Origin: Candidatus Nomurabacteria bacterium
GTDB taxonomy: Bacteria > Patescibacteriota > Minisyncoccia > Phycocordibacterales > UBA9973
Reading direction: 5' to 3'
NCBI GenBank assembly: GCA_016699365.1
Contig: CP064973.1
Span: 195-64,194 of the forward strand
DNA length: 64,000 nt
Shown: positions 2,500-36,620 of the stretch, one piece after another
Position numbering within the stretch: the stretch's first letter is position 1
Layout of the letters: the number at the start of each line of letters is the position of its first letter
Made by a program: the position numbers and the translations under genes
The notes under the pieces: generated by a model
Seen by the model: only the letters and a program-made list of their open reading frames with translations
Told to the model about the DNA's origin: nothing
Database searches by the model: none

Positions 2500-2634
2500 A
2501 GCGTAAAGAAAAATCTGCATTTCTGCAGATTTTTTAGCTGTGCGAGCCGGAGTCATATTTTTTCAGCAGAAAAAATAGACGAGACAGGGTCGTGAAAATT
2601 TTGTTTTGACGAAAACAAAATTATTCCTGACCCC
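2500..2634 (+). repeat. tRNA-linked structured element, copy B (tandem with copy A)
   Basis: Hairpins aaaaatctgca-TTTC-tgcagatttt; tattttttc-AGCA-gaaaaaata; aaattttgtttt-GACG-aaaacaaaatt. Conserved linkers cagggtcgtgaaaatttt and aaaattattcctgacc are shared with the tRNA-Cys copy. Confidence 0.6.
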
Positions 2635-2640
2635 AAAATT

Positions 2641-16728: not shown

Positions 16729-19602
16729 TTATATAACAAAGTTTATTATCCTACCTGGTACATATATCACGCGTTTTATATCTTTGTCTGAAATCCAATT
16801 TTTAACTTTTTCATTGTCTTTTGCCATAGACACAGCTTCATCTTCAGATATGCCGCTTGGCATAGTTATTTCTGCACGAACTTTTCCATTTACCTGAATT
16901 ATTATCAGATTTTCATTGTCTACTATTTTTGAATCATCCCATTTTGGCCAATCGGTAAGGTGGATAGAAGAACTCTCCCCCATTTCGTTCCACAACTCTT
17001 CAGCTATGTGTGGAGCAAAAGGTGCAAGAAGTTTCAATAAAATTTTATAATCATCTTTTGATATTGAATCTTTCTTGTCCAAATCATTTATTAATATCAT
17101 CATTTGAGATATTGCAGTATTGAATTTGAATTCTTCTATATCTTCTGTAATTTTCTTTATAACTTTATGTAGAAGTGTTCCTATATCATTTGCATTGTCT
17201 GAAATTTTTTCTTTTAATTTCCATACACGCTCAATAAATCTTCGCACCCCTACAACCCCATTTGGATCCCATGGATAATTTGTAGTAATACCATAGGGAC
17301 CCATGAATGCTAGGTAAAGTCTAACAGTGTCTGCACCAAGACGCTCCACTATTTCGTCTGGATTTATAACGTTTCCACGACTCTTACTCATCTTCTCTCC
17401 GTCAGGCCCTAGTATAAGCCCACGATTGCGACGTACTGTATAAGCTTCACTGTCTTTTACAAGACCCAGGTCATATAGTGCCTTTGTCCAAAAACGAGAA
17501 TACAGCAAGTGCATAGTTGTATGCTCTGCTCCTCCCATATACAAATCTATAGGCATCCATGCATCCATACTGTCCATGCTCGCAAATTCTTTTTCATTTT
17601 TGTTGTCTAGGTATCTATAGAAGTACCATGAAGAATCTACGAAGGTATCCATAGTTTCTACTTCTGGTTTCCAGCCAGCACCAAATATTTTTTCTGTTCG
17701 TTCAAATAGTTCCTTGCTTCTTGCAAGTGGTGCAGTCCCGTCTGGTGTATGATCTACATCTGTCGGAAGAATCCAAGGCAAGTGTTCGTCTGGTACAGGA
17801 TGTGCATTACCTTCCGGATCATATACTATCGGGATCGGACAACCCCAATACCGCTGACGACTAATACCCCAATCGCGAAGCCGATAAGTCTTTAGTATTT
17901 TTCCACCAACAAATTCTGTGATTTTTATACGAGCTTCTTCGGACCTTAGATTACTGAAATCTCCAGAATCTACTAACACTCCATATGAAGTAATGCATTC
18001 TTCTGTATTGTTTCTAAAAACTCTCCACGGATAACGCATATCTTCACGCATAATAAAATCATGAACTTTTTCGCCATCTACCCATACAAAATCCGCTATA
18101 GATTTTTCTTCTGGAGATACTTCGTCTCTATCTAAATCAGCAAGTTTTACATGCACAATTTTATAATGTGCAAATCGATTGTGTTTTTTAAATACATGAT
18201 AGAAAAGTCCATGAGAGGATTTGTCGAAAACTTTGATTGATGCAATATTTTTGTATCCAGTTTCTTCTGGTATTTCCCGACGCGCTGTTTCTTCTGTAGT
18301 GTGACCCTCTTCTATCCCACCAGTTACAAAACCTTTCCAGTCTACTTGTTTCCAAACTGCACACAAAAATTTATCTTCGGTTGGATGCTCAATAATACAA
18401 ACTATATTTTCTCTTGAAACTTCTTCTATCCCGTCTTGATATGCATCTTTGCCAGGCCCAGTGTTCACATCAATCGGCTCAATCACTTGCCGCATCGACA
18501 AATTGTATTTCTTTGCAAATTCAAAATCTCTCTCATCGTGTGCAGGTACTGCCATAACAGCACCAGTCCCATAACCCGCGAGTACATAGTCTGCAATCCA
18601 GACCGGAACCCATTCTCCGTTTGCAGGATTTATTGCCATAACACCCCCAACCTGAACACCCGTTTTGTTTTTTGATTGTTGACGATCAAGCTCTGATTTC
18701 TTTTTTGTATCTGCAATATATTTTTCTACCTCTTCTAAGTTCCAGATCTTTTCTTTTATTTTTGAAATTAATTCATGTTCAGGAGAGAGAACTATATAAG
18801 TAACTCCAAAAAGCGTGTCTGCGCGTGTTGTAAAAACTGAAACCTTTTCAAAAGGCTCACTTCTACCATTCGGCCATTCAGTCGGGGTATTTGCAATACC
18901 AAATTCAATTTCACTTCCCTCGCTTCTGCTAATCCAGTTTTTTTGTGATTCTTTGATATTCTCGGGCCATGCGAGTTTGTCTAAATCGTCGATTAGTCTA
19001 TCTGCGTATTTTGTAATACGAAGCATCCATTGTGGTTGGTCACGCTGAATTACTTCACTTCCACAACGCTCACATTTATTGTCTACGACTTGCTCGTTTG
19101 CAAGTATAGTCTGATCTTTCGGACACCAATTCACTTTTGTTATCGCTCTGTACACAAGATCATTTTTCAAAAACTGATTGAATATCCACTGTGTCCATCT
19201 GTAGTACTCTGGATCACAAGTTACGACTTCTCTGTCCCATGGAAAACTAGCGCCCATAGTGCGGAGTTGAGCGCGCATCTTTTCCATTTGTTCGTATGTC
19301 CAAACTTTAGGATCAGCACCGAGCTTGATCGCAGCGTTTTCTGCAGGAAGACCAAAGGCATCGAAACCCATCGGATAGAGCACGTTGAATCCTTGCATTC
19401 TCTTATATCTCGCAAAAATATCCGGCACGGAAAAAGCGTACCAGTGTCCTACATGTAGATTGCCCGAAGGATATGAGAACTCTACGAGTTGGTAAAAATT
19501 TTCCTTACCAGGCATTTGATTTGGGACACTGTAAATCCCGTCAGCTTCCCATTTATCCTGCCATTTTTTCTCTATATCTTTGTGGTTGTAATTTTCAGCC
19601 AT
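16729..19602 (-). CDS. leuS: Leucine--tRNA ligase carrying an inserted Nudix hydrolase domain (approx. nt 17998-18418)
   Basis: HVGH (HIGH), KMSKS, AHDERDFEFAKKY editing-domain motif and YRLRDWGISRQRYWG. About 150 extra residues between these contain the Nudix box GGIEEGHTTEETARREIPEETGY (REUxEExGU matched exactly). Confidence 0.9.
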   Translation of the reverse strand: MAENYNHKDIEKKWQDKWEADGIYSVPNQMPGKENFYQLVEFSYPSGNLHVGHWYAFSVPDIFARYKRMQGFNVLYPMGFDAFGLPAENAAIKLGADPKVWTYEQMEKMRAQLRTMGASFPWDREVVTCDPEYYRWTQWIFNQFLKNDLVYRAITKVNWCPKDQTILANEQVVDNKCERCGSEVIQRDQPQWMLRITKYADRLIDDLDKLAWPENIKESQKNWISRSEGSEIEFGIANTPTEWPNGRSEPFEKVSVFTTRADTLFGVTYIVLSPEHELISKIKEKIWNLEEVEKYIADTKKKSELDRQQSKNKTGVQVGGVMAINPANGEWVPVWIADYVLAGYGTGAVMAVPAHDERDFEFAKKYNLSMRQVIEPIDVNTGPGKDAYQDGIEEVSRENIVCIIEHPTEDKFLCAVWKQVDWKGFVTGGIEEGHTTEETARREIPEETGYKNIASIKVFDKSSHGLFYHVFKKHNRFAHYKIVHVKLADLDRDEVSPEEKSIADFVWVDGEKVHDFIMREDMRYPWRVFRNNTEECITSYGVLVDSGDFSNLRSEEARIKITEFVGGKILKTYRLRDWGISRQRYWGCPIPIVYDPEGNAHPVPDEHLPWILPTDVDHTPDGTAPLARSKELFERTEKIFGAGWKPEVETMDTFVDSSWYFYRYLDNKNEKEFASMDSMDAWMPIDLYMGGAEHTTMHLLYSRFWTKALYDLGLVKDSEAYTVRRNRGLILGPDGEKMSKSRGNVINPDEIVERLGADTVRLYLAFMGPYGITTNYPWDPNGVVGVRRFIERVWKLKEKISDNANDIGTLLHKVIKKITEDIEEFKFNTAISQMMILINDLDKKDSISKDDYKILLKLLAPFAPHIAEELWNEMGESSSIHLTDWPKWDDSKIVDNENLIIIQVNGKVRAEITMPSGISEDEAVSMAKDNEKVKNWISDKDIKRVIYVPGRIINFVI

Positions 19603-20252: not shown

Positions 20253-20777
20253 ATGTCTAACCGAGAAAGACTACAAAAAAAGGGTTCAGACTTGATAGAA
20301 GGTGCTTCTGTCAAAGCTACAAAATGGATTGGCTCCGTTGCTTCACTTGTAGTACACACTATACTTTTTATTGGTGCTTTTTTGCTTATTCTAGTTGGTT
20401 TCGAACGTGACACCATACTTCTAGTTGTTACTACCATCGTCTCACTTGAAGCAATATACCTGTCTATATTCATCCAGATGACAGTGAACCGCCATACAGA
20501 AGAGCTTCATGATGTGTCAGAGGATGTGGAAGAGATTCAAAAAGATGTCGATGAAATCCAAGAGGATGTGGAAGAGATTCAAAAAGATGTCGATGAAATC
20601 CAAGAGGATGTGGAAGACTTGGGAGAAGATGTGGATGAGATAAGCGGAGATTCAAACCTGACCCTAGACCAAAAAACAGAACGTATTGCAAAAGATATAG
20701 AGATTCTAAAAAATATTGAGGAAAGACTTCGTGAACTATCGGTTCATCTCGCAGATATAAAGAAGAAAAAAGAATAA
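20253..20777 (+). CDS. Membrane protein with an acidic tandem-repeat coiled-coil tail (hypothetical)
   Basis: Two TM helices, then EDVEEIQKDVDEIQ repeats. Confidence 0.5.
   Translation: MSNRERLQKKGSDLIEGASVKATKWIGSVASLVVHTILFIGAFLLILVGFERDTILLVVTTIVSLEAIYLSIFIQMTVNRHTEELHDVSEDVEEIQKDVDEIQEDVEEIQKDVDEIQEDVEDLGEDVDEISGDSNLTLDQKTERIAKDIEILKNIEERLRELSVHLADIKKKKE
20520..20625 (+). repeat. Perfect 42-bp in-frame tandem repeat (2.5 copies) inside the 20253-20777 CDS
   Basis: gaggatgtggaagagattcaaaaagatgtcgatgaaatccaa repeated exactly at 20520-20561 and 20562-20603, partial third copy. Confidence 0.85.
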
Positions 20778-20856: not shown

Positions 20857-21273
20857 CTAATCGAAATTTTCTACAATATCATTAAAAACATTACTCTCAT
20901 TTTTATCATCGTCAAAAGAATTATAATTATCTAAGATTTCTTCTCCAATTTGAATATCTCTTACCGCAACTGTAACCACCTCTTCTTCATTGTCTCTATA
21001 TTCCGATAAAGCATTCGGATCGTCTGAGTGATTGAAATATTTACCATTATCGGAAGACAAGCAATATAAGCCACTCTTCTTACTTCTCCAGCAATATTTG
21101 TATGCATAAATTTGGAGCAAATCTGGAAAGTTTAAAATCTGCTCTCGTGTAAACTTTTGATCAAAACCTGGAGTAAACCTCCAAATTTCAGTTCCCTTTG
21201 GAATAAACTCATCTGCAAAAAGACCGATCCCGTGAATTTTGCTTTGAGCAATCTTATTTTTAACAAGCAACAT
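20857..21273 (-). CDS. SET-domain protein (putative lysine methyltransferase)
   Basis: GIGLFA...KGTEI, YFNHSDDPN (NHSC-like motif), EEIL.NY post-SET-like end. Confidence 0.7.
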   Translation of the reverse strand: MLLVKNKIAQSKIHGIGLFADEFIPKGTEIWRFTPGFDQKFTREQILNFPDLLQIYAYKYCWRSKKSGLYCLSSDNGKYFNHSDDPNALSEYRDNEEEVVTVAVRDIQIGEEILDNYNSFDDDKNESNVFNDIVENFD

Positions 21274-23442: not shown

Positions 23443-24024
23443 ATGTCACGAGCAGAAGAATTAAATCAAATTCATAAAAAATGGTCTGCGAAATGTAAAT
23501 GTGGTCTTAAAAAAACTGCAAAACAAGCAGTATTTGGTGATGGAAATAGTAGTGCAAAAATAGTTTTCATAGGCGAAGCTCCTGGCAAGAAAGAAGATGG
23601 AACTGGAGTCCCTTTTGTTGGGTCTGCAGGAAAATTTTTGAGTGAGATGCTTGAGTCTATAAAAATGAAACGTGATGATGTATATATTACAAACATCGTA
23701 AAATATCGCCCACCAGAAAATCGCGATCCGACCTCAAAAGAAAAAGAAGATTGTCGTGAGTGGTTATACGAGGAACTAAAATTTATAAAACCAGAACTAA
23801 TAGTCTTCTTGGGTCGCCACTCAATGAACGACTTTTTCCCAGACTTAAAAATATCTGACGCTCACGGAAAACTAATTCATAAAAAATTCGCCGACTTCCC
23901 TACTGAAAATTTCCTACCTCTCTATCACCCAGCTGCTGCGCTCTACAACGGAAGTATGAGAGAAACCTTGATAAAAGACTTTCGCAAAATCCCAAAAATT
24001 TTAGACAAAATTAAAACCCGCTAA
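23443..24024 (+). CDS. Uracil-DNA glycosylase, family 4
   Basis: GEAPG..ED..G.PFVG.AG motif A; HPAA..Y motif B; Cys cluster near N-terminus. Confidence 0.82.
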   Translation: MSRAEELNQIHKKWSAKCKCGLKKTAKQAVFGDGNSSAKIVFIGEAPGKKEDGTGVPFVGSAGKFLSEMLESIKMKRDDVYITNIVKYRPPENRDPTSKEKEDCREWLYEELKFIKPELIVFLGRHSMNDFFPDLKISDAHGKLIHKKFADFPTENFLPLYHPAAALYNGSMRETLIKDFRKIPKILDKIKTR

Positions 24025-24040
24025 AATAGCGGGTTTGTTT

Positions 24041-24881
24041 TTATTGACCAGAGAGAGTTTTGAATCTTTTCTTCTTTTCCACAACGGTCTTTAAAAATTC
24101 CTGACCAGTCGCTTCAATGAAATCAAGTACGGTCTGAACTTCAACCTCACTAAATTCATTGTTCTCGTATCCAGCAAAAGCATCTTCAATGCTTTTTATC
24201 ATCGCCTTATTGTAGGCGTTGAACCTTTGCTTGATATTACCCTTGAAATTTCTAATTGAGTAATGCTTCTTCCTCTTTACTCCTTTTCTGTCTTTCAACA
24301 TCAAGGCGAGCTGGTTTTCATCCACACCAAACTGGGTAGCAGCTTCTGATACATTGATTTTTTGAGTACCCATTGCATCCAGAGCTTTTACTATCTGTCG
24401 CTCTTTATGTTTTTGAACAACCATATCGGCATAATTTTTTGCCATTTTAGGAGGCATGACTTCACTCAACCTTGCTACAACTTCACGTTTTTTATATCCA
24501 GTAACTTCATAAAGCTGTTTAGCTGTATACAGAAAATCTTCGTGGGTCATCGGCTTTGAAGATTTAACATCTTCAGAGATAGCGTCGATAATCATGTCCG
24601 CCTCATTGTCGTATGTCTTGATATGACACTTGATGGTCTGAAAATCAGCTAGTAATCGTCCCTGAATACGGTGACGACCCTTTACCAATTTGTATTTACC
24701 AGGCTTTTCTTCACCAAATGGTGTTACAGTAATAGGATCAACATCAACATTATTGGCATACAGAGCAGCTAATTGCTCAACCCATGCCTGATCAAGCTTT
24801 TTACGAAAATTTCTTGTCGTAATAATGTCTTCAATTTTGATTTCCTTGGGGGAGGTTTTTACGGTAGTAGCTATAATTCAT
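24041..24881 (-). CDS. ParB-like nuclease (ParB/Srx N-domain) plus HTH protein; ATG at 24881 is out of frame with the body across a G5 run (24848-24852)
   Basis: PITVTPFGEEKPGKYKLVKGRHRIQGRLLADFQTIKCHI matches the ParB N-domain (GxRR/HRxxA box). Body frame is open upstream to 24885 but has no ATG; a 1-nt change in the homopolymer joins the ATG. Confidence 0.5.
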
Positions 24882-24939
24882 ATTCTTTTTTTGTGAACTT
24901 ATGTATTCTGTATATCACATATTACAAAAATGTCAAATA

Positions 24940-24966
24940 TAAAACCCCGCAAAATTGCGGGGTTAT
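24940..24966 (-). terminator. Terminator hairpin (aaccccgcaaaattgcggggtt) after the 541-aa gene
   Basis: Palindrome followed by T-run on the minus strand. Confidence 0.55.
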
Positions 24967-24968
24967 TT

Positions 24969-26594
24969 TCAATCAGTAATTCCCAAAAACCTCAGGATAT
25001 CGGTCGTAGACATAGACTTAAAAGTCTCCAGGCTCACTTTCCAGCGATTACCAGGGAGCATCTTTACATTGCTGTAAGGAACTCCGACATGACCTGTCTT
25101 GTCTATTACAACAAGACCACTTTCAACGATCTGATGGATGAGTCTTTTGAGCATCCTTCTCTCCTCTACCGGATCTTTTTCCGTTCTTACTATAACCTCC
25201 TTTTTATTGGAGATTATATCCTCAAGCCTGTCGATAGCTTTGTGAGCTTCGTCTTCAGTCAAACCTTTCATCAATCTCGCAATTCGAGCTATTGAAGTAG
25301 GTTTTTCTTCTGCTTCTAGTTTTGTCTGATTTTGCAAAACCGTCCTCACAACAAGCATGTCAGTTTTTTCTCCCTCTTTATGAATACTTTTCTGTGAATC
25401 AGGGATCTCACGAGGCATGATTTCATCAGAAACCGGATTTAATGACGGCAACATAAGGTGTTTTTTGTTTGCTGTGACATACTTGTACCCAGCATCCATC
25501 AGCTTTAATGCAAGGTCCTCATAATTGGCTCCGCGTTCAATAGTTATGTACCACATTTTATCATTCACATAAAACCTGTGTGGTTTTAAACCGAGCGCTC
25601 CGAGAAATCTGCCTTTCAAATATCCTGGCTCTGATCTTTCGATTAGCTCAAAGTATGTTATAGACTTTTCTACGAATCTATAGTTAATAATTAGGATACT
25701 CTGGGCATTCTCGTTTACGAACGAGAGTCTAAAGCCGCTTTCTTGTAAACGCTTCTTGAATTTATCGAGCAAGGTAATCCTGTCTGACTTGAAGTTCAAA
25801 ACCATCCTCATATTATTATCATCAGAAATCGGTTTTGACTCAAGGTTCCCATTTTTTCGGTTAAAGAAAATTCCTTGCTCTTCAAGTAAACACTCAAGAG
25901 CCTTTTTGCGTATTGGACGAAAAGTCGCTGAAACTGGAATACGAAGCTTATCGCAATCTACGATAACTTCACCAAAGTTATCGTTCTTTTCCACCAGAAA
26001 AGCACTGCCATCACCATTGATAAGACTACAAAACAATGTAAGTTCTGTGAACTTTACACTATCTGCTCTTTTTGTTAAATCAAAAGATAGACGGAGTGTT
26101 ACCTGATCGCAATCGCAAACATTCTCTTTTGGTATATAAAATACCTTCAAAAGATCTGACGCAACTTCGGGAATTTCGAGCACCTGGTTAACATCAGAAG
26201 AACCAACCTCTTCTATCTCCACTTCTTCAGCAGCTACAGTTTCGACTGATTCATCTTGAATTTCCGGTAAAATAATTTCATCGAGAATAGTATCTTCTTC
26301 TTTTGAAGAAACTACTTTCATTTTATTTACCTCCGGATTTTCAAAATATCCAATCACTTCAATCATTGCATTGTGTTCTTCCTTGTATTGGAGCATCAAA
26401 TCATCGCAAGCCTTCTTTACTCTTGCCGCGTCTTTGAAGTTATATTTAACCTTCAAACTCACCATGTTTGTCACTGGGTTTTTAACCATAGAAAGGTCAA
26501 CATTTGAAAACGTTTTTCGAATCCGTTTTTTTATGCTCCCAATCTTCTCTTCATTAAGTAAAGTTGGTTGAACTTGTGTATTTGTATTTGCCAT
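24969..26594 (-). CDS. Hypothetical 541-aa protein upstream of the ParB-like gene
   Basis: Long ORF with an acidic N-terminal stretch; no family recognised by eye. Confidence 0.5.
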   Translation of the reverse strand: MANTNTQVQPTLLNEEKIGSIKKRIRKTFSNVDLSMVKNPVTNMVSLKVKYNFKDAARVKKACDDLMLQYKEEHNAMIEVIGYFENPEVNKMKVVSSKEEDTILDEIILPEIQDESVETVAAEEVEIEEVGSSDVNQVLEIPEVASDLLKVFYIPKENVCDCDQVTLRLSFDLTKRADSVKFTELTLFCSLINGDGSAFLVEKNDNFGEVIVDCDKLRIPVSATFRPIRKKALECLLEEQGIFFNRKNGNLESKPISDDNNMRMVLNFKSDRITLLDKFKKRLQESGFRLSFVNENAQSILIINYRFVEKSITYFELIERSEPGYLKGRFLGALGLKPHRFYVNDKMWYITIERGANYEDLALKLMDAGYKYVTANKKHLMLPSLNPVSDEIMPREIPDSQKSIHKEGEKTDMLVVRTVLQNQTKLEAEEKPTSIARIARLMKGLTEDEAHKAIDRLEDIISNKKEVIVRTEKDPVEERRMLKRLIHQIVESGLVVIDKTGHVGVPYSNVKMLPGNRWKVSLETFKSMSTTDILRFLGITD

Positions 26595-26677
26595 AACTGT
26601 ATTGGTTTTTTAAATGAACTTATATATACTTTTTACACGTAAAAAGCCTTCTTGTCAAGGAGGCTTTTTGTAATATA

Positions 26678-30141: not shown

Positions 30142-30355
30142 GCTCGAACTCATCGGCTTCAGTTTTTGTATTATTTTTATCTTGTTTCAAAACCCTTTTA
30201 GTATAAAAAATACTTCCTACACCCAAAATAATCAAACCCGCAAGACTTAGATAAATATAAGTATTTTTTGGTATGGGAAGATTGGCTGAATTTGCAGATA
30301 TATTTCTGTTATCAATAGTACTTTGTGTATCTATACTTTCATAATTTGAATACAC
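30128..30355 (-). other. C-terminal TM anchor segment, probably the continuation of the LTD-PKD protein across a frameshift at an A5/T5 run (30356-30360)
   Basis: GTG-start 75-aa ORF overlapping the upstream stop; encodes LPIPKN followed by a TM helix and KR; adding one base in the homopolymer fuses it in-frame. Confidence 0.4.
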
Positions 30356-31551
30356 TTTTTACTAGTAGAAATAGGCAATATTCTACTAATGGTGCCTTCT
30401 TCCTGAATCTGAGACTTGGGATATTCATATGCAACTTCCCCAGTTGGGTATCTAAGCAATACTCTAGAAATATTTGATTTAAAATGTGTAGCTTTTGGAG
30501 AAAGAATTATCTTTTTCCCAGCCAAAAGAATAGAGTTTTTCGAAAATCTATACGAAATATTATCGCTTTCAATTACCCAGCCATTTAGATCTTGTTCAAA
30601 TTTGGAAGTATTAGATACTTCTATTGCACCATCTTCTAGTATTTTTAAAACGATAGAGGAATCTACTACTTTTACAACCAATCTATCTGTATCATCTTTT
30701 TCGATACTGTCTACATTGTAATAATCGAGTGTAACAACATATTCACCAGGATAATAATATATGTGTTCAAATTTTTTAGCCGGCTTAAAAGTATACTCAG
30801 TTCCATCTCCCATATTCCATATATAATATCCACCACGACTTAAATCTCCATTATTTTTCTGTAATAGAGAGTCAAATGTTGATGGTAATCCAGAAACAAT
30901 AACAATATCTGATAATATCTCCACGTCTTCTTCTGGTGGAATAAAATCTAATATATCTGCATCTTCTTCTGTTGAACTATAGCTTACAAATTCGTCTGTA
31001 TCACCACCCTCATCAGAAGATGTATTATCACTATCTGAAAATGAAGAATTAGATTCTCCAGGACTCGGATCTCCGCTTGTCCATGTGCCATTTATTTTTG
31101 CCAAACTAGATCCATCACCCGCACCTCCTGTCGTAGAATCATAAGTATAAGAAGCAATAGTTGCACTATTCGCATCCACAAGCGAAACAGTGTCTGAAGT
31201 ATTTGTAAGAGACATGACCGTATCTATAAGATTGCCACTATAACTTGGATATTCCCCGAGGAATACGTTGGCATTTGCAGCAAAGACTATGTATTCAGAA
31301 GGACCTATCTCTAAAGAACCCATTCCTCCATTTGCAGGAGGCTCATTCAGAGTATGATTTGCTCCATCGTTGAATTTCCAACCAGACAAATTCACGGAAT
31401 CAGAACCGGAATTATAAAATTCTACCCATTCAAGATCAGTGTCCGCACCAGAATGATCGTACATAATCTCAGTTACAGAGACTTCAGCCAACACAAAATG
31501 GTGTGTAGTAAAAAATAATACAAAATATAGTAAAACTCTAAAAAATCTCAT
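30331..31551 (-). CDS. Secreted LTD (lamin-tail) plus PKD domain surface protein
   Basis: Signal peptide; LTD motif VTEIMYDHSGADTDLEWVEFYN...LSGW; PKD-like GDGTEYT...YYYPGEYVVTL. Confidence 0.6.
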   Translation of the reverse strand: MRFFRVLLYFVLFFTTHHFVLAEVSVTEIMYDHSGADTDLEWVEFYNSGSDSVNLSGWKFNDGANHTLNEPPANGGMGSLEIGPSEYIVFAANANVFLGEYPSYSGNLIDTVMSLTNTSDTVSLVDANSATIASYTYDSTTGGAGDGSSLAKINGTWTSGDPSPGESNSSFSDSDNTSSDEGGDTDEFVSYSSTEEDADILDFIPPEEDVEILSDIVIVSGLPSTFDSLLQKNNGDLSRGGYYIWNMGDGTEYTFKPAKKFEHIYYYPGEYVVTLDYYNVDSIEKDDTDRLVVKVVDSSIVLKILEDGAIEVSNTSKFEQDLNGWVIESDNISYRFSKNSILLAGKKIILSPKATHFKSNISRVLLRYPTGEVAYEYPKSQIQEEGTISRILPISTSKKCIQIMKV

Positions 31552-31558
31552 GACTTTT

Positions 31559-33580
31559 TTACTCTAATACTTTTCTCAATATATCTTCTGGGATTTCTCT
31601 AGGCTTTTTTGAAACTGTAGTGTTCGCCGGATCTTTCGATACAGGCACTGTATCAGATGATGAATCATTGCTCTCGATTGAACTATTTACCATTCTAGGT
31701 AATACAACTTGTTTTTGTGTCGTAGAAATAGGAGCTGGTGTAGGTGTAGCTTCTACTTTTTTAACAGGAGGAGGTGGTGGAGGTGTGTTGTTTTTGTTTT
31801 CGGCAATAACTTGCGCAAGAACATTTTTTAATGCATTTCTATTTTCGACAGTGGGTTCTTTTTGAGGTATAGGTTTCTTTTTCAAGCCCTCCAGAGATAT
31901 TGGATTTTTAGACACAGCTCCAATATTTGGATTTACAATAGTAGTCTGATTTTGATTTTCTTTTGGCAGATCATCTGTATCTATACGACTTACTAAATCC
32001 TTCAACCCAGAAAAAGGCTTCTTCTCTTCTGGTCTTCTATCAGCTGGTGGGTAGCTGGATTTTTGAACTAAATTAGATGGTTTTGGAGAAGCAGGTTTAT
32101 TGAAAGCTGGTCTTGAAGTACTTTGAACTGGAGCAGTTTGAGGTCTATTGAAAACTGGCTTTGGAGAAAAAGTGCTTGTATTTTGATTTTGACTAAAATT
32201 CTGACTACTACGATTATTTTCAATCGCACCGTTCACACTCGGCCGAGGAGCTCCATCAACAGGAAAGTCTCTTTTTGGTTTTTCAATTACGACTGGTGCA
32301 TGCCATTCCTTTATATTTTCTTCAATATTAGATCTTGGACGTGCGTTGGATTTTCTAGAATTTTCAATTATCTCTTTGGTATAAGATATTGCTGGTTTTT
32401 CAATTGGAGGCATTGAGAGCGCAGAGAAAGGTTTTGAGCCTATACCATTTATCATTAGTCTCAAGTATATCTGGATAAAACCTAAGTTGACTATATCTTC
32501 TGCTGTAAAAACAGGAGAGAATTCTTTTTCAAAAACTTCTGCATCCGTAGCACCGACTCTAAAAATAACCATAGTACCTACGTTTCCAAAAACAGCTGCG
32601 CGAACCTCGTCAGACATCTGCTCTATATACTGGTGAGCGATTGTGAGACTAAGTTTATATTTACGAGCCTCAGACAAAATATCGGCAAAACTATCACTAG
32701 CAAAAGACTGAAACTCGTCAACATAAAAATAGAAGTGTGGAAGTTTTTTTAGTGCATCTGGGCTCGCATCAGCGCGTGACATGGCCGCCAAGTATATCTT
32801 GGTAATAAGCATACCTCCGAGTAGTGCAGCATTTTGTTCACCGACACGTCCTTTTGAGAGGTTCATTATCAATATTTTCTTTTCATCCATTAATTTACGA
32901 ATATCAAAAGACGAATGTGGTTGGCCTATGATGTTACGAATTATTGGGTTTGCGGTAAATTGACCTATTTTGTTTTGAATTGCAGCACCAGCTTCTTGCA
33001 TATAACGATCACCGTATTTTGCAAATTCATCTACCCAAAAAGATTTCACTGATGGATCAGATATATTTTCAACAACTTTTTTTCGAAAATCTTTATCAGC
33101 AAGCATTCTGTTAACTCCAAGTAATGTTGATTCTGGATATTCAAGTAGAGCAAGGAGTATATTGTTCAATATGTATTCCATACGTGCACTCCAAGCGTCC
33201 ACCCAAATCTTTTTGAAAGAACTCATGAGTCCACTTGCCACTAGATGGCGCTTGTCTGCACCAATATCTTCCATAACATTGAAGGATATCGGATAGTCTA
33301 TATCAAAAGGAGCAAAATATACCACATCTTTTAAACGACTCTCTGGAACATAATCAAGCAATTTTTCTGCTGTTCCTCCGTGTGGATCTATAAAAGCCAT
33401 ACCTTCACCGTTTTGGATATCTTGGATAGCCATATTTTCAAGCAGAGTAGACTTTCCCATACCCGTCTTTCCTATAACATACATATGACGAGCTCTGTCT
33501 GTAGCCTTAATACCAAAACGCGTTCGTTTGTTACGATAATCTGTTTCTCCGAAATAAGTTATTTTATCTTCAGGATTCAT
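31559..33580 (-). CDS. VirD4/TraG/TraD-like type IV coupling-protein ATPase with a long disordered Pro/Ser/Asn-rich C-terminal tail
   Basis: Walker A VIGKTGMGKST, Walker B FYFYVDEFQSF, FtsK/HerA-like core; C-terminal roughly 250 aa are low complexity. Confidence 0.55.
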   Translation of the reverse strand: MNPEDKITYFGETDYRNKRTRFGIKATDRARHMYVIGKTGMGKSTLLENMAIQDIQNGEGMAFIDPHGGTAEKLLDYVPESRLKDVVYFAPFDIDYPISFNVMEDIGADKRHLVASGLMSSFKKIWVDAWSARMEYILNNILLALLEYPESTLLGVNRMLADKDFRKKVVENISDPSVKSFWVDEFAKYGDRYMQEAGAAIQNKIGQFTANPIIRNIIGQPHSSFDIRKLMDEKKILIMNLSKGRVGEQNAALLGGMLITKIYLAAMSRADASPDALKKLPHFYFYVDEFQSFASDSFADILSEARKYKLSLTIAHQYIEQMSDEVRAAVFGNVGTMVIFRVGATDAEVFEKEFSPVFTAEDIVNLGFIQIYLRLMINGIGSKPFSALSMPPIEKPAISYTKEIIENSRKSNARPRSNIEENIKEWHAPVVIEKPKRDFPVDGAPRPSVNGAIENNRSSQNFSQNQNTSTFSPKPVFNRPQTAPVQSTSRPAFNKPASPKPSNLVQKSSYPPADRRPEEKKPFSGLKDLVSRIDTDDLPKENQNQTTIVNPNIGAVSKNPISLEGLKKKPIPQKEPTVENRNALKNVLAQVIAENKNNTPPPPPPVKKVEATPTPAPISTTQKQVVLPRMVNSSIESNDSSSDTVPVSKDPANTTVSKKPREIPEDILRKVLE

Positions 33581-36448: not shown

Positions 36449-36620
36449 GTGGACCCTGCCGGAGTTTCTCCTTCGACTCATTGGTGGTCAGGAATAATTT
36501 TCTCGTCGTCGTTCGAAAATTTTCACGACCCTGACTCGGTATTTCGTATTGCTATACAAAATATACCTGCGTCTTCCACACACTAAAAAATCTCCAGCAG
36601 TGGAGATTTTTTATGTTTGG
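36449..36620 (-). repeat. tRNA-linked structured element, copy C (downstream of tRNA-Cys), ending with a degenerate copy of the tRNA-Cys 3' half (36449-36490)
   Basis: Minus-strand sequence aligns to copy B over about 130 nt: hairpin aaaaaatctcca-CTGC-tggagatttttt, tattttgtat-AGCA-atacgaaata, cagggtcgtgaaaatttt, GACG-containing hairpin, aaaattattcctgacc. Confidence 0.6.

Follow-up and report, generated by a model that had tools for sequence, protein, structure and literature searches.

A putative orphan ParB-type DNA-binding protein encoded by a dimorphic single-gene cassette next to an older lineage-specific gene in Candidatus Nomurabacteria

Introduction

Do a ParB-like gene and the large uncharacterized gene directly upstream of it form one functional system, or are they neighbours with separate histories? 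This question is raised by a locus in the 64,000-nucleotide (nt) stretch of DNA analysed here (in the following called the window), in which a gene for a 541-amino-acid (aa) protein, gene A, is followed in the same direction by a gene for a ParB-like protein, gene B. The protein encoded by gene A is identical to P0001 and its source is a 705-kb contig of a Candidatus Nomurabacteria (candidate phyla radiation, CPR) genome. In an earlier interpretation made without database searches (the sequence-only reading) the two genes were regarded as a mobile, defence or addiction module in an accessory neighbourhood. Both open reading frames (ORFs) described there are real (Table 1), and that of gene B holds the KLVKGRHRIQGRLLADF box.

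The reading favoured here, to which a probability of about 0.55 is assigned, is that B is an orphan DNA-binding switch or clamp of the ParB-CTPase fold and helix-turn-helix (HTH) type, encoded by a stand-alone dimorphic cassette, and that A is an unrelated, older, lineage-specific and probably DNA-binding protein. If this holds true, a very divergent, clade-restricted member from a reduced CPR genome would be added to the orphan ParB-CTPase-fold class, and the locus would be a natural example of an orphan ParB gene that behaves as a single-gene cassette and is exchanged between otherwise 99-100% identical strains. The dimorphism and exchange of B suggest selection on specificity, and the two types would provide matched natural variants for the mapping of DNA-site or nucleotide specificity. 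Gene A forms a lead of its own: it is strongly conserved and possibly built on a scaffold derived from homing endonucleases. The results have no bearing on a long-standing open question.

Allele exchange at gene B

Gene B occurs in two deeply diverged types, with a protein identity of about 45% between the types and of 84-99% within a type. Type 1 comprises the B genes of the window and of the related loci L012 (93%) and L004 (84%), and type 2 those of L001 and L011 (98.6% to each other). The flanks of L001 are 99-100% identical to the window at the DNA level on both sides, and its leucyl-tRNA synthetase (LeuRS) and Ndh proteins are 99.9% and 99.8% identical, respectively. Within a tract at approximately 25409-24019 the identity amounts to 33-88%, mostly 43-73%, in 60-nt windows, and this tract spans the last ~145 codons of A, the whole of B and the 3' end of the UDG gene. 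In the comparison of the window with L011, the drop in identity is limited to B (~24900-24019). L004 has flanks only 60-87% identical to the window, yet it carries a type-1 B. The B genes of L001 and L011 are 97-100% identical in 60-nt DNA windows, with one at 90%, and their A genes are 83-98% identical. Since type membership contradicts the relatedness of the flanks, and since the drop in L011 is found at B alone, B is exchanged as a discrete cassette.

Homologous recombination would swap the two types between strains, and the conserved terminator and promoter sequences around B may serve as its anchors. Along the 21 kb compared between the window and L001 there are also smaller mosaic patches, with identities of 90-97%, and no other tract is nearly as divergent; judging from these patches, recombination is common in this population. 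The ratio of nonsynonymous to synonymous substitution rates (dN/dS) within the types is 0.045-0.10, and therefore both B types are maintained by purifying selection.

Synteny and insertion of gene B

Relatives with A at 88%, 89%, 90% and 61% identity share one gene order, namely TraG-like ATPase, LTD protein, anti-sigma, sigma, Ndh, A, B, convergent UDG and YchF, and the synteny of the window holds in relatives down to ~60% protein identity. The order is continued by SET wherever the contig is long enough (L001, L011 and L012). This gene, which adjoins YchF and encodes a small bacterial SET-domain protein (20857-21273, minus strand; Pfam SET 6e-15), is kept in these three loci and hence belongs to the core synteny and is not accessory. 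The loci of the two remote A homologues differ from this. L008 and L009 (~25% A identity) read TrwB, anti-sigma, sigma, Ndh, A, UDG and YchF without a B gene, 55 nt and one hairpin separating A and UDG. In L006, A is directly followed by a UDG-like C-terminus, again with no B between them. The B-less A-UDG order in remote relatives shows that the conserved block is older and that B was inserted into it later, as a single gene. B, a single-gene cassette that brought its own promoter, would have come to lie within the Ndh-A-UDG block in one Nomurabacteria-like clade.

Several points of the sequence-only reading are not supported. The neighbourhood that it described as accessory is one of conserved housekeeping synteny, and a GC-atypical gene is not visible, the GC content around the A-B locus being 0.35-0.40 within a window range of 0.31-0.42. 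An obligate pair would be at odds with the more distant relatives, in which A holds its place in the gene order and B is missing, and co-inheritance with the replacement of B by a 45%-identical allele independently of A.

A toxin-antitoxin-like defence or addiction module of A and B in a mobile accessory island is very improbable and largely refuted, even though an association of stand-alone ParB-like genes with mobile elements is frequent, B acts as an exchangeable cassette and similar terminator-like repeats flank it. Integrase, transposase, phage and plasmid genes were not found among the large ORFs of the 64 kb in Pfam scans, and PADLOC gave no match for A or for either B allele type. Moreover, synteny persists in relatives at ~25% A identity, A is vertically inherited and occurs without B, and the genes appear to be separately transcribed, as set out in the following section.

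Transcriptional organization of the locus

The intergenic gaps at the locus are 83, 94 and 16 nt long, and terminator-like sites are frequent in the region (13 against 3.5 expected). Between A and B a G+C-rich hairpin of 9-10 bp with a T-run after it was found, as the sequence-only reading had stated. The promoter-like element of B (TTGACA/TGATATACA) sits directly after this terminator; its -35 hexamer and a TGATA(T/A)A(C/T)A element are kept in L001, L004 and L005. The element was read from the sequence and presumably acts as a promoter; a consensus scan does not list it because the -10 hexamer ends in A. Because terminators follow Ndh, A and B, and because B has a conserved promoter of its own, A and B look like separate transcription units. 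They would be two separately transcribed neighbours and not a two-gene system.

The terminators on the two sides of B resemble each other in stem, loop and flanking bases. An ungapped comparison gives matches at 28 of 37 positions, and two of the three CCCGC...GCGGG hairpins in the 64 kb flank B. There are hints that the original A/UDG terminator was duplicated when B inserted.

ParB-like features of gene B

The ParB/sulfiredoxin (Srx)-type N-domain attributed to B by the sequence-only reading was recovered with weak similarity in Pfam (ParB_N, PF02195; E 9e-4, 19.7 bits against a cutoff of 26.3, profile positions 4-94 of 95). Stronger matches were obtained to two PHROG profiles of phage ParB-like partition proteins, 1033 (7.5e-14) and 3264 (9.8e-11, residues 11-237), and, by hhalign, to the canonical CPR ParB encoded in a Nanosyncoccus parA-parB operon (L016; 96%, E 1.6e-9). 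The N-domain of the latter is 34% identical to that of B, including the domain start KEIKIEDI, and no alignment of the two proteins was found past residue 107 of B. The nearest solved relatives are KorB, H. pylori Spo0J, Caulobacter ParB and Noc, with E-values of 0.01-0.2. The KLVKGRHRIQGRLLADF box aligns with GERRWRA of the canonical ParB and GARRYRG of KorB; Box II of B reads GRHRIQG, keeping only GxxR of GERRxRA, and Box III (ENLQR in canonical proteins) reads DAISED, whereas ENAQRE is found in the canonical CPR protein. The ParA-activating peptide, which is of the LG(R/K)GL type, is absent: B begins with MATTVKTSPKEIKIEDI and lacks the LGRGF-type N-terminus of the canonical CPR ParB, which begins with MKGLGRGFESLIP (MKGLGRGF-type). 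No ParA partner was found either, in agreement with the sequence-only reading: none of the large ORFs in the 64 kb codes for a ParA/CbiA-type ATPase.

B is not a canonical Spo0J/Noc protein, because its scores are far below the NCBIfam cutoffs (19.8 bits against 58.45 for TIGR00180 and 22 against 315 for Noc), the ParA-activating peptide is missing and Box III is replaced. The stand-alone character claimed for it is supported. Homology of the N-domain to the canonical CPR ParB and a similar length (277 versus 278 aa) would speak for B as the organism's own chromosomal ParB, a Spo0J/Noc orthologue in a fast-evolving form. This explanation is barely credible, since the scores lie below the equivalog as well as the domain cutoffs, parA is not adjacent, the family is confined to one small clade, the allele types share only 45% identity and in the window B has lost its start codon.

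In the central part of B, a weak profile alignment to H. pylori Spo0J was obtained, and the match of PHROG 3264 reaches into this region. From these two alignments we infer a central HTH. The C-terminal HTH of the sequence-only reading would correspond to this weakly aligned central region; a match to HTH_ParB (PF17762) or to any other HTH family was not found. In the proposed domain plan, B would consist of an N-terminal nucleotide-binding-type domain, a central HTH-aligned region and a helical C-terminal region.

The B family is small. Seven matches were found in 5.8 billion proteins, two of which are canonical ParBs, and among GTDB genomes relatives occur only in the same clade. Relatives were found neither in phage or plasmid records (tblastn) nor among viral contigs of IMG/VR (tblastn or pattern scan).

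With these properties B fits a non-canonical, divergent member of the orphan ParB-CTPase-fold class represented by KorB, VirB, Noc and BisD (PMC12704722). Like these proteins it has a ParB N-fold with a GxxR P-motif and a Box I-like helix-loop, lies outside a parAB operon, has a divergent Box III and no ParA-activating peptide, and aligns in its central region with the ParB DNA-binding region. In contrast to them, the similarity of B is limited to ~100 residues, its family is restricted to one CPR clade, its gene is located in the core chromosome and not on a plasmid, an integrative and conjugative element or a virulence island, and it comes in two allele types of 45% identity that recombination swaps. 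Judging from homology, B most likely binds DNA site-specifically as a dimer and acts as a switch or clamp of the KorB/VirB/Noc/BisD type. As the ParA-activating peptide, Box III and a nearby ParA are all missing, it would work independently of ParA, as a regulator or nucleoid organiser and not as an adaptor of ParA-driven segregation. According to a survey of the class, neither sequence nor AlphaFold3 predicts the nucleotide specificity of orphan ParB-CTPase-fold proteins (PMC12704722).

A second known arrangement, the TIGR-Tas system with TasParB (PMC12045711), also places a ParB-like gene beside a larger uncharacterized protein gene in CPR and phage genomes. A TIGR-TasA/TasParB locus was ruled out, since an array, non-coding space to hold one and a Nop-domain match in A are all lacking; moreover, A is predicted to be an alpha/beta protein.

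Start codon of gene B

Position 24872-24874 reads ATA in the window and ATG in L005 (99% identical), L012, L001, L011 and L004; the DNA of the relatives continues as ATG-GCT and that of the window as ATA-GCT. The frame is open from 24877 to the stop codon at 24041 and contains no ATG, GTG or TTG ahead of the N-domain. The first canonical start is a TTG at 24688, the use of which would cut 62 residues from the N-domain. The remainder of the ORF is intact, with 98.6-99% identity to the relative. A second ATG-to-ATA change (Met to Ile) is located inside B (ERQIVK versus ERQMVK), and four nonsynonymous and no synonymous changes separate the window from L005. A frameshift at the CCCCC run upstream of B was considered and ruled out, as the relatives use the same frame from ATG-GCT. 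The B gene of the window is either weakly initiated from ATA, freshly inactivated or affected by a base-call error; expression from the ATA start may be poor, or the gene may be heading for loss.

Gene A and its possible fold

As the sequence-only reading had stated, A has no recognizable family: no match was found in Pfam, NCBIfam, PHROG, PADLOC or PDB sequences. Walker motifs, signal peptides and membrane segments were not seen by sequence inspection. Only 11 close homologues of A were found. An exhaustive profile search among 1.84 billion representatives added two remote proteins to the cluster of A itself, so that homologues occur in only three 50%-identity clusters. The remote homologues are P0016 and P0017; their E-values are 7e-20 and 5.5e-7, their matches cover only residues ~13-394 and ~146-374, and the core of A is the only region conserved in them. 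In the near-identical strain L001 the C-terminal region is 55% identical, compared with 99.5% for the core. The dN/dS values of A are 0.13-0.31. A is probably an older, vertically inherited, clade-restricted cytoplasmic protein.

An AlphaFold2 model of A from 7 close homologues reached a predicted local distance difference test score (pLDDT) of 47, and in a model from a 9-sequence alignment including the two remote homologues residues 140-400 reached a pLDDT of 75-87. In Foldseek searches (PDB with both models; viral structures) WhiA (3hyi) and LAGLIDADG enzymes ranked first, the latter represented by I-DmoI, intein endonucleases and a LAGLIDADG protein of a crAss-like phage. Single-domain matches to a ferredoxin-like domain (XcpY) reach a template modelling (TM) score of 0.5.

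The motif FCSLINGDG is invariant in the 7 close homologues. In 128,000 residues of six-frame translation nothing else fits a generalised LAGLIDADG pattern, which was drawn up once the motif was known, and 2 of 20,000 shuffles fit it. A possible second motif (KRLQESG) is degenerate. In the remote homologues both motifs are absent or degenerate, which is what one would expect of a domesticated scaffold without catalysis, such as WhiA. By hhalign the first motif falls on that of I-CreI, without significance (E 0.16). In common with WhiA and LAGLIDADG endonucleases, A is predicted to have tandem alpha-beta-beta-alpha-beta-beta units of ~95-100 residues, a helical C-terminal region and a LAGLIDADG-like motif at a helix end, and these proteins gave the best matches in all three Foldseek searches. 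It differs from them in its length (541 aa), which includes an additional N-terminal domain and the acidic linker, in the absence of a detectable HTH_WhiA and, as regards whiA, in gene context. The odds that the core is a homing-endonuclease-like or WhiA-like DNA-binding scaffold are put at even or slightly better, and the models suggest that A binds DNA and is possibly derived from a nuclease.

Ancestry from LAGLIDADG or WhiA proteins was also sought at the sequence level, with non-significant results for hhalign against I-CreI, a 3-sequence WhiA alignment and internal repeats. A similarity to spermidine synthase (Pfam E 1.7e-3, below the cutoff) was judged to be a coincidence of the GDG motif.

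Assessment of alternative readings

Several results weigh against the favoured reading. The Foldseek matches of A have E-values of 1.5e-3 to 0.1, never below 1e-3, and a TM-score of ~0.25, and nine A members gave no Pfam match to LAGLIDADG_1/2/3, WhiA_N, LAGLIDADG_WhiA or HTH_WhiA at E-values up to 10. As to B, the alignments that point to its HTH are all weak, a repeated parS-like palindrome of 14-18 bp was not found in the 64 kb, and the ParB/Srx fold also takes in nucleases and ATPase toxins. At the level of the locus, the variable C-terminus of A is replaced along with B in L001, and B, where the context suffices, always lies directly downstream of A (five independently assembled loci and one short contig). 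A parS-like or operator palindrome in the vicinity of B was likewise sought, and none was found.

The joint replacement in L001 and the strict co-oriented adjacency in every B-containing locus would also suit a cooperating DNA-organisation pair, in which a ParB-type clamp B works with a WhiA/LAGLIDADG-like partner A. The analogy would be KorB with its clamp-locking partners KorA and TrbA, as KorB-type clamps use small DNA-binding partners (PMC11790492, PMC13584720), or the genetic interplay of WhiA with chromosome segregation, which WhiA influences in B. subtilis and Streptomyces (PMC10714963, PMC3781837); the fold of A points weakly to WhiA. However, a terminator and a promoter element separate from that of A stand between the two genes, L008, L009 and L006 have A and no B, and in the window the start codon of B is lost while A is intact. 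All B-containing loci are syntenic relatives, and adjacency confined to one clade of such relatives is no independent evidence of functional coupling. Co-variation of the A C-terminus with the type of B was ruled out by L011, where a type-2 B is found next to an A C-terminus close to that of the window (82%); L001 carries a third, highly divergent version of this region. On balance such a pair appears rather unlikely.

Improbable in our view, and more so than the pair, is a further proposal in which A is a CPR-specific domesticated tandem LAGLIDADG (WhiA-analogous) DNA-binder and B its ParA-independent partner in chromosome organisation or segregation. The B types would then be site specificities under balancing selection, moved as a cassette bounded by the duplicated terminator hairpins. 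In a bolder variant A would keep nuclease activity (D195, E285), and its double-strand breaks would drive the local gene conversion on the 3' side of A.

The breadth of the ParB/Srx fold brings in another explanation, namely that B is a nuclease or NTPase effector acting in the manner of Osa or of toxins of contact-dependent inhibition (CDI), its dimorphism reflecting conflict-driven diversification. ParB-fold nucleases and ATPase toxins exist, two deeply diverged B types are exchanged between strains, and the profile relatives of B are phage ParB-like proteins. The GxHR-type motif of B (KGRHR), which we take to resemble the nuclease/Srx branch, was also counted in favour of an effector. A cognate immunity or antitoxin gene is not found nearby, though, and there is no PADLOC match; the likeness of B to ParB, KorB and phage partition proteins reaches into the DNA-binding region, purifying selection within each type is strong and the context is one of housekeeping genes. 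An effector is for these reasons considered a poor prospect, and the reading of B as a DNA-binding switch or clamp is preferred.

Genomic setting and additional observations

The features of the locus are compiled in Table 1. According to Pfam scans of the large ORFs, the gene content of the 64 kb is housekeeping only and includes guanylate and adenylate kinases, TsaD, class I and II aminoacyl-tRNA synthetases, LepA, MurJ, LeuRS, YchF, UvrABC, D-Ala-D-Ala ligase, TGT, MreBC, S2/EF-Ts, DnaG, RpoD and RpoC. Recoding of TGA (genetic code 25) was ruled out, as long housekeeping ORFs are intact under table 11. Rfam families other than tRNAs were not found in the window.

Table 1. Positions of the features of the A-B locus in the window
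Feature	Position	Strand	Description
Gene A	24969..26594	-	541-aa ATG-initiated ORF; hypothetical IPJ63_00165, Candidatus Nomurabacteria
A acidic linker, aa 86-139	26178..26339	-	predicted disordered, pLDDT 21-33 in both models; indel-rich among homologues
A conserved core, aa 140-400	25395..26177	-	repeated alpha-beta-beta-alpha-beta-beta units; possible degenerate LAGLIDADG/WhiA-like scaffold
FCSLINGDG motif, aa 188-196	26007..26033	-	LAGLIDADG-like; end of helix 176-192, beta-hairpin next
A variable C-terminal region, aa 401-541	24972..25394	-	helical, pLDDT <50; unmatched in remote homologues
Gene B, orphan ParB-like	24041..24874	-	277 codons plus stop; ATA at start position
B N-domain, ParB/Srx (ParB-CTPase-fold), aa 8-107	24554..24853	-	Pfam, PHROG 1033, hhalign
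KLVKGRHRIQGRLLADF box	24641..24691	-	holds Box II GxxR P-motif G66-R67-H68-R69; invariant in both allele types
B promoter-like element	24909..24936	-	TTGACA, 16-nt spacer, TATACA, TG before it (extended -10-like)
A terminator, intrinsic	24943..24964	-	AACCCCGCAATTTTGCGGGGTT then T-run; kept in L001, L004, L005
B/convergent UDG terminator, bidirectional	24014..24036	.	hairpin; resembles A-B terminator
Ndh terminator	26641-26669		hairpin 3' of upstream Ndh gene

Some further elements of the window were recorded. The LeuRS of 957 aa (16729-19602, minus strand) contains an inserted NUDIX-hydrolase domain with the Nudix box GGIEEGHTTEETARREIPEETGY, and a Pfam NUDIX domain is also listed inside the L001 orthologue. 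A TraG/VirD4/HerA-like ATPase (31559-33580, minus strand) with T4SS-DNA_transf and TrwB_AAD_bind domains (PADLOC mad8 1e-14) is adjoined by a secreted LTD/PKD-domain protein (30331-31551, minus strand). This pair is kept in all relatives including the distant L008, and no other type IV secretion genes are located nearby. A repeat of ~130 nt is present at ~2505-2640 (plus strand) and ~36480-36610 (minus strand), 3' of tRNA-Val and tRNA-Ala. Its terminator hairpin precedes a second, imperfect hairpin that is conserved (CAGGGTCGTGAAAATTTT...AAAATTATTCCTGACC); the repeat has no Rfam match and may be an unannotated small RNA or regulatory element. Finally, a DUF948-like membrane-anchored coiled-coil protein is encoded at 20253-20777 (plus strand), in whose gene a perfect 42-nt tandem repeat of 2.4 copies (20519-20617) encodes EDVEEIQKDVDEIQ units.

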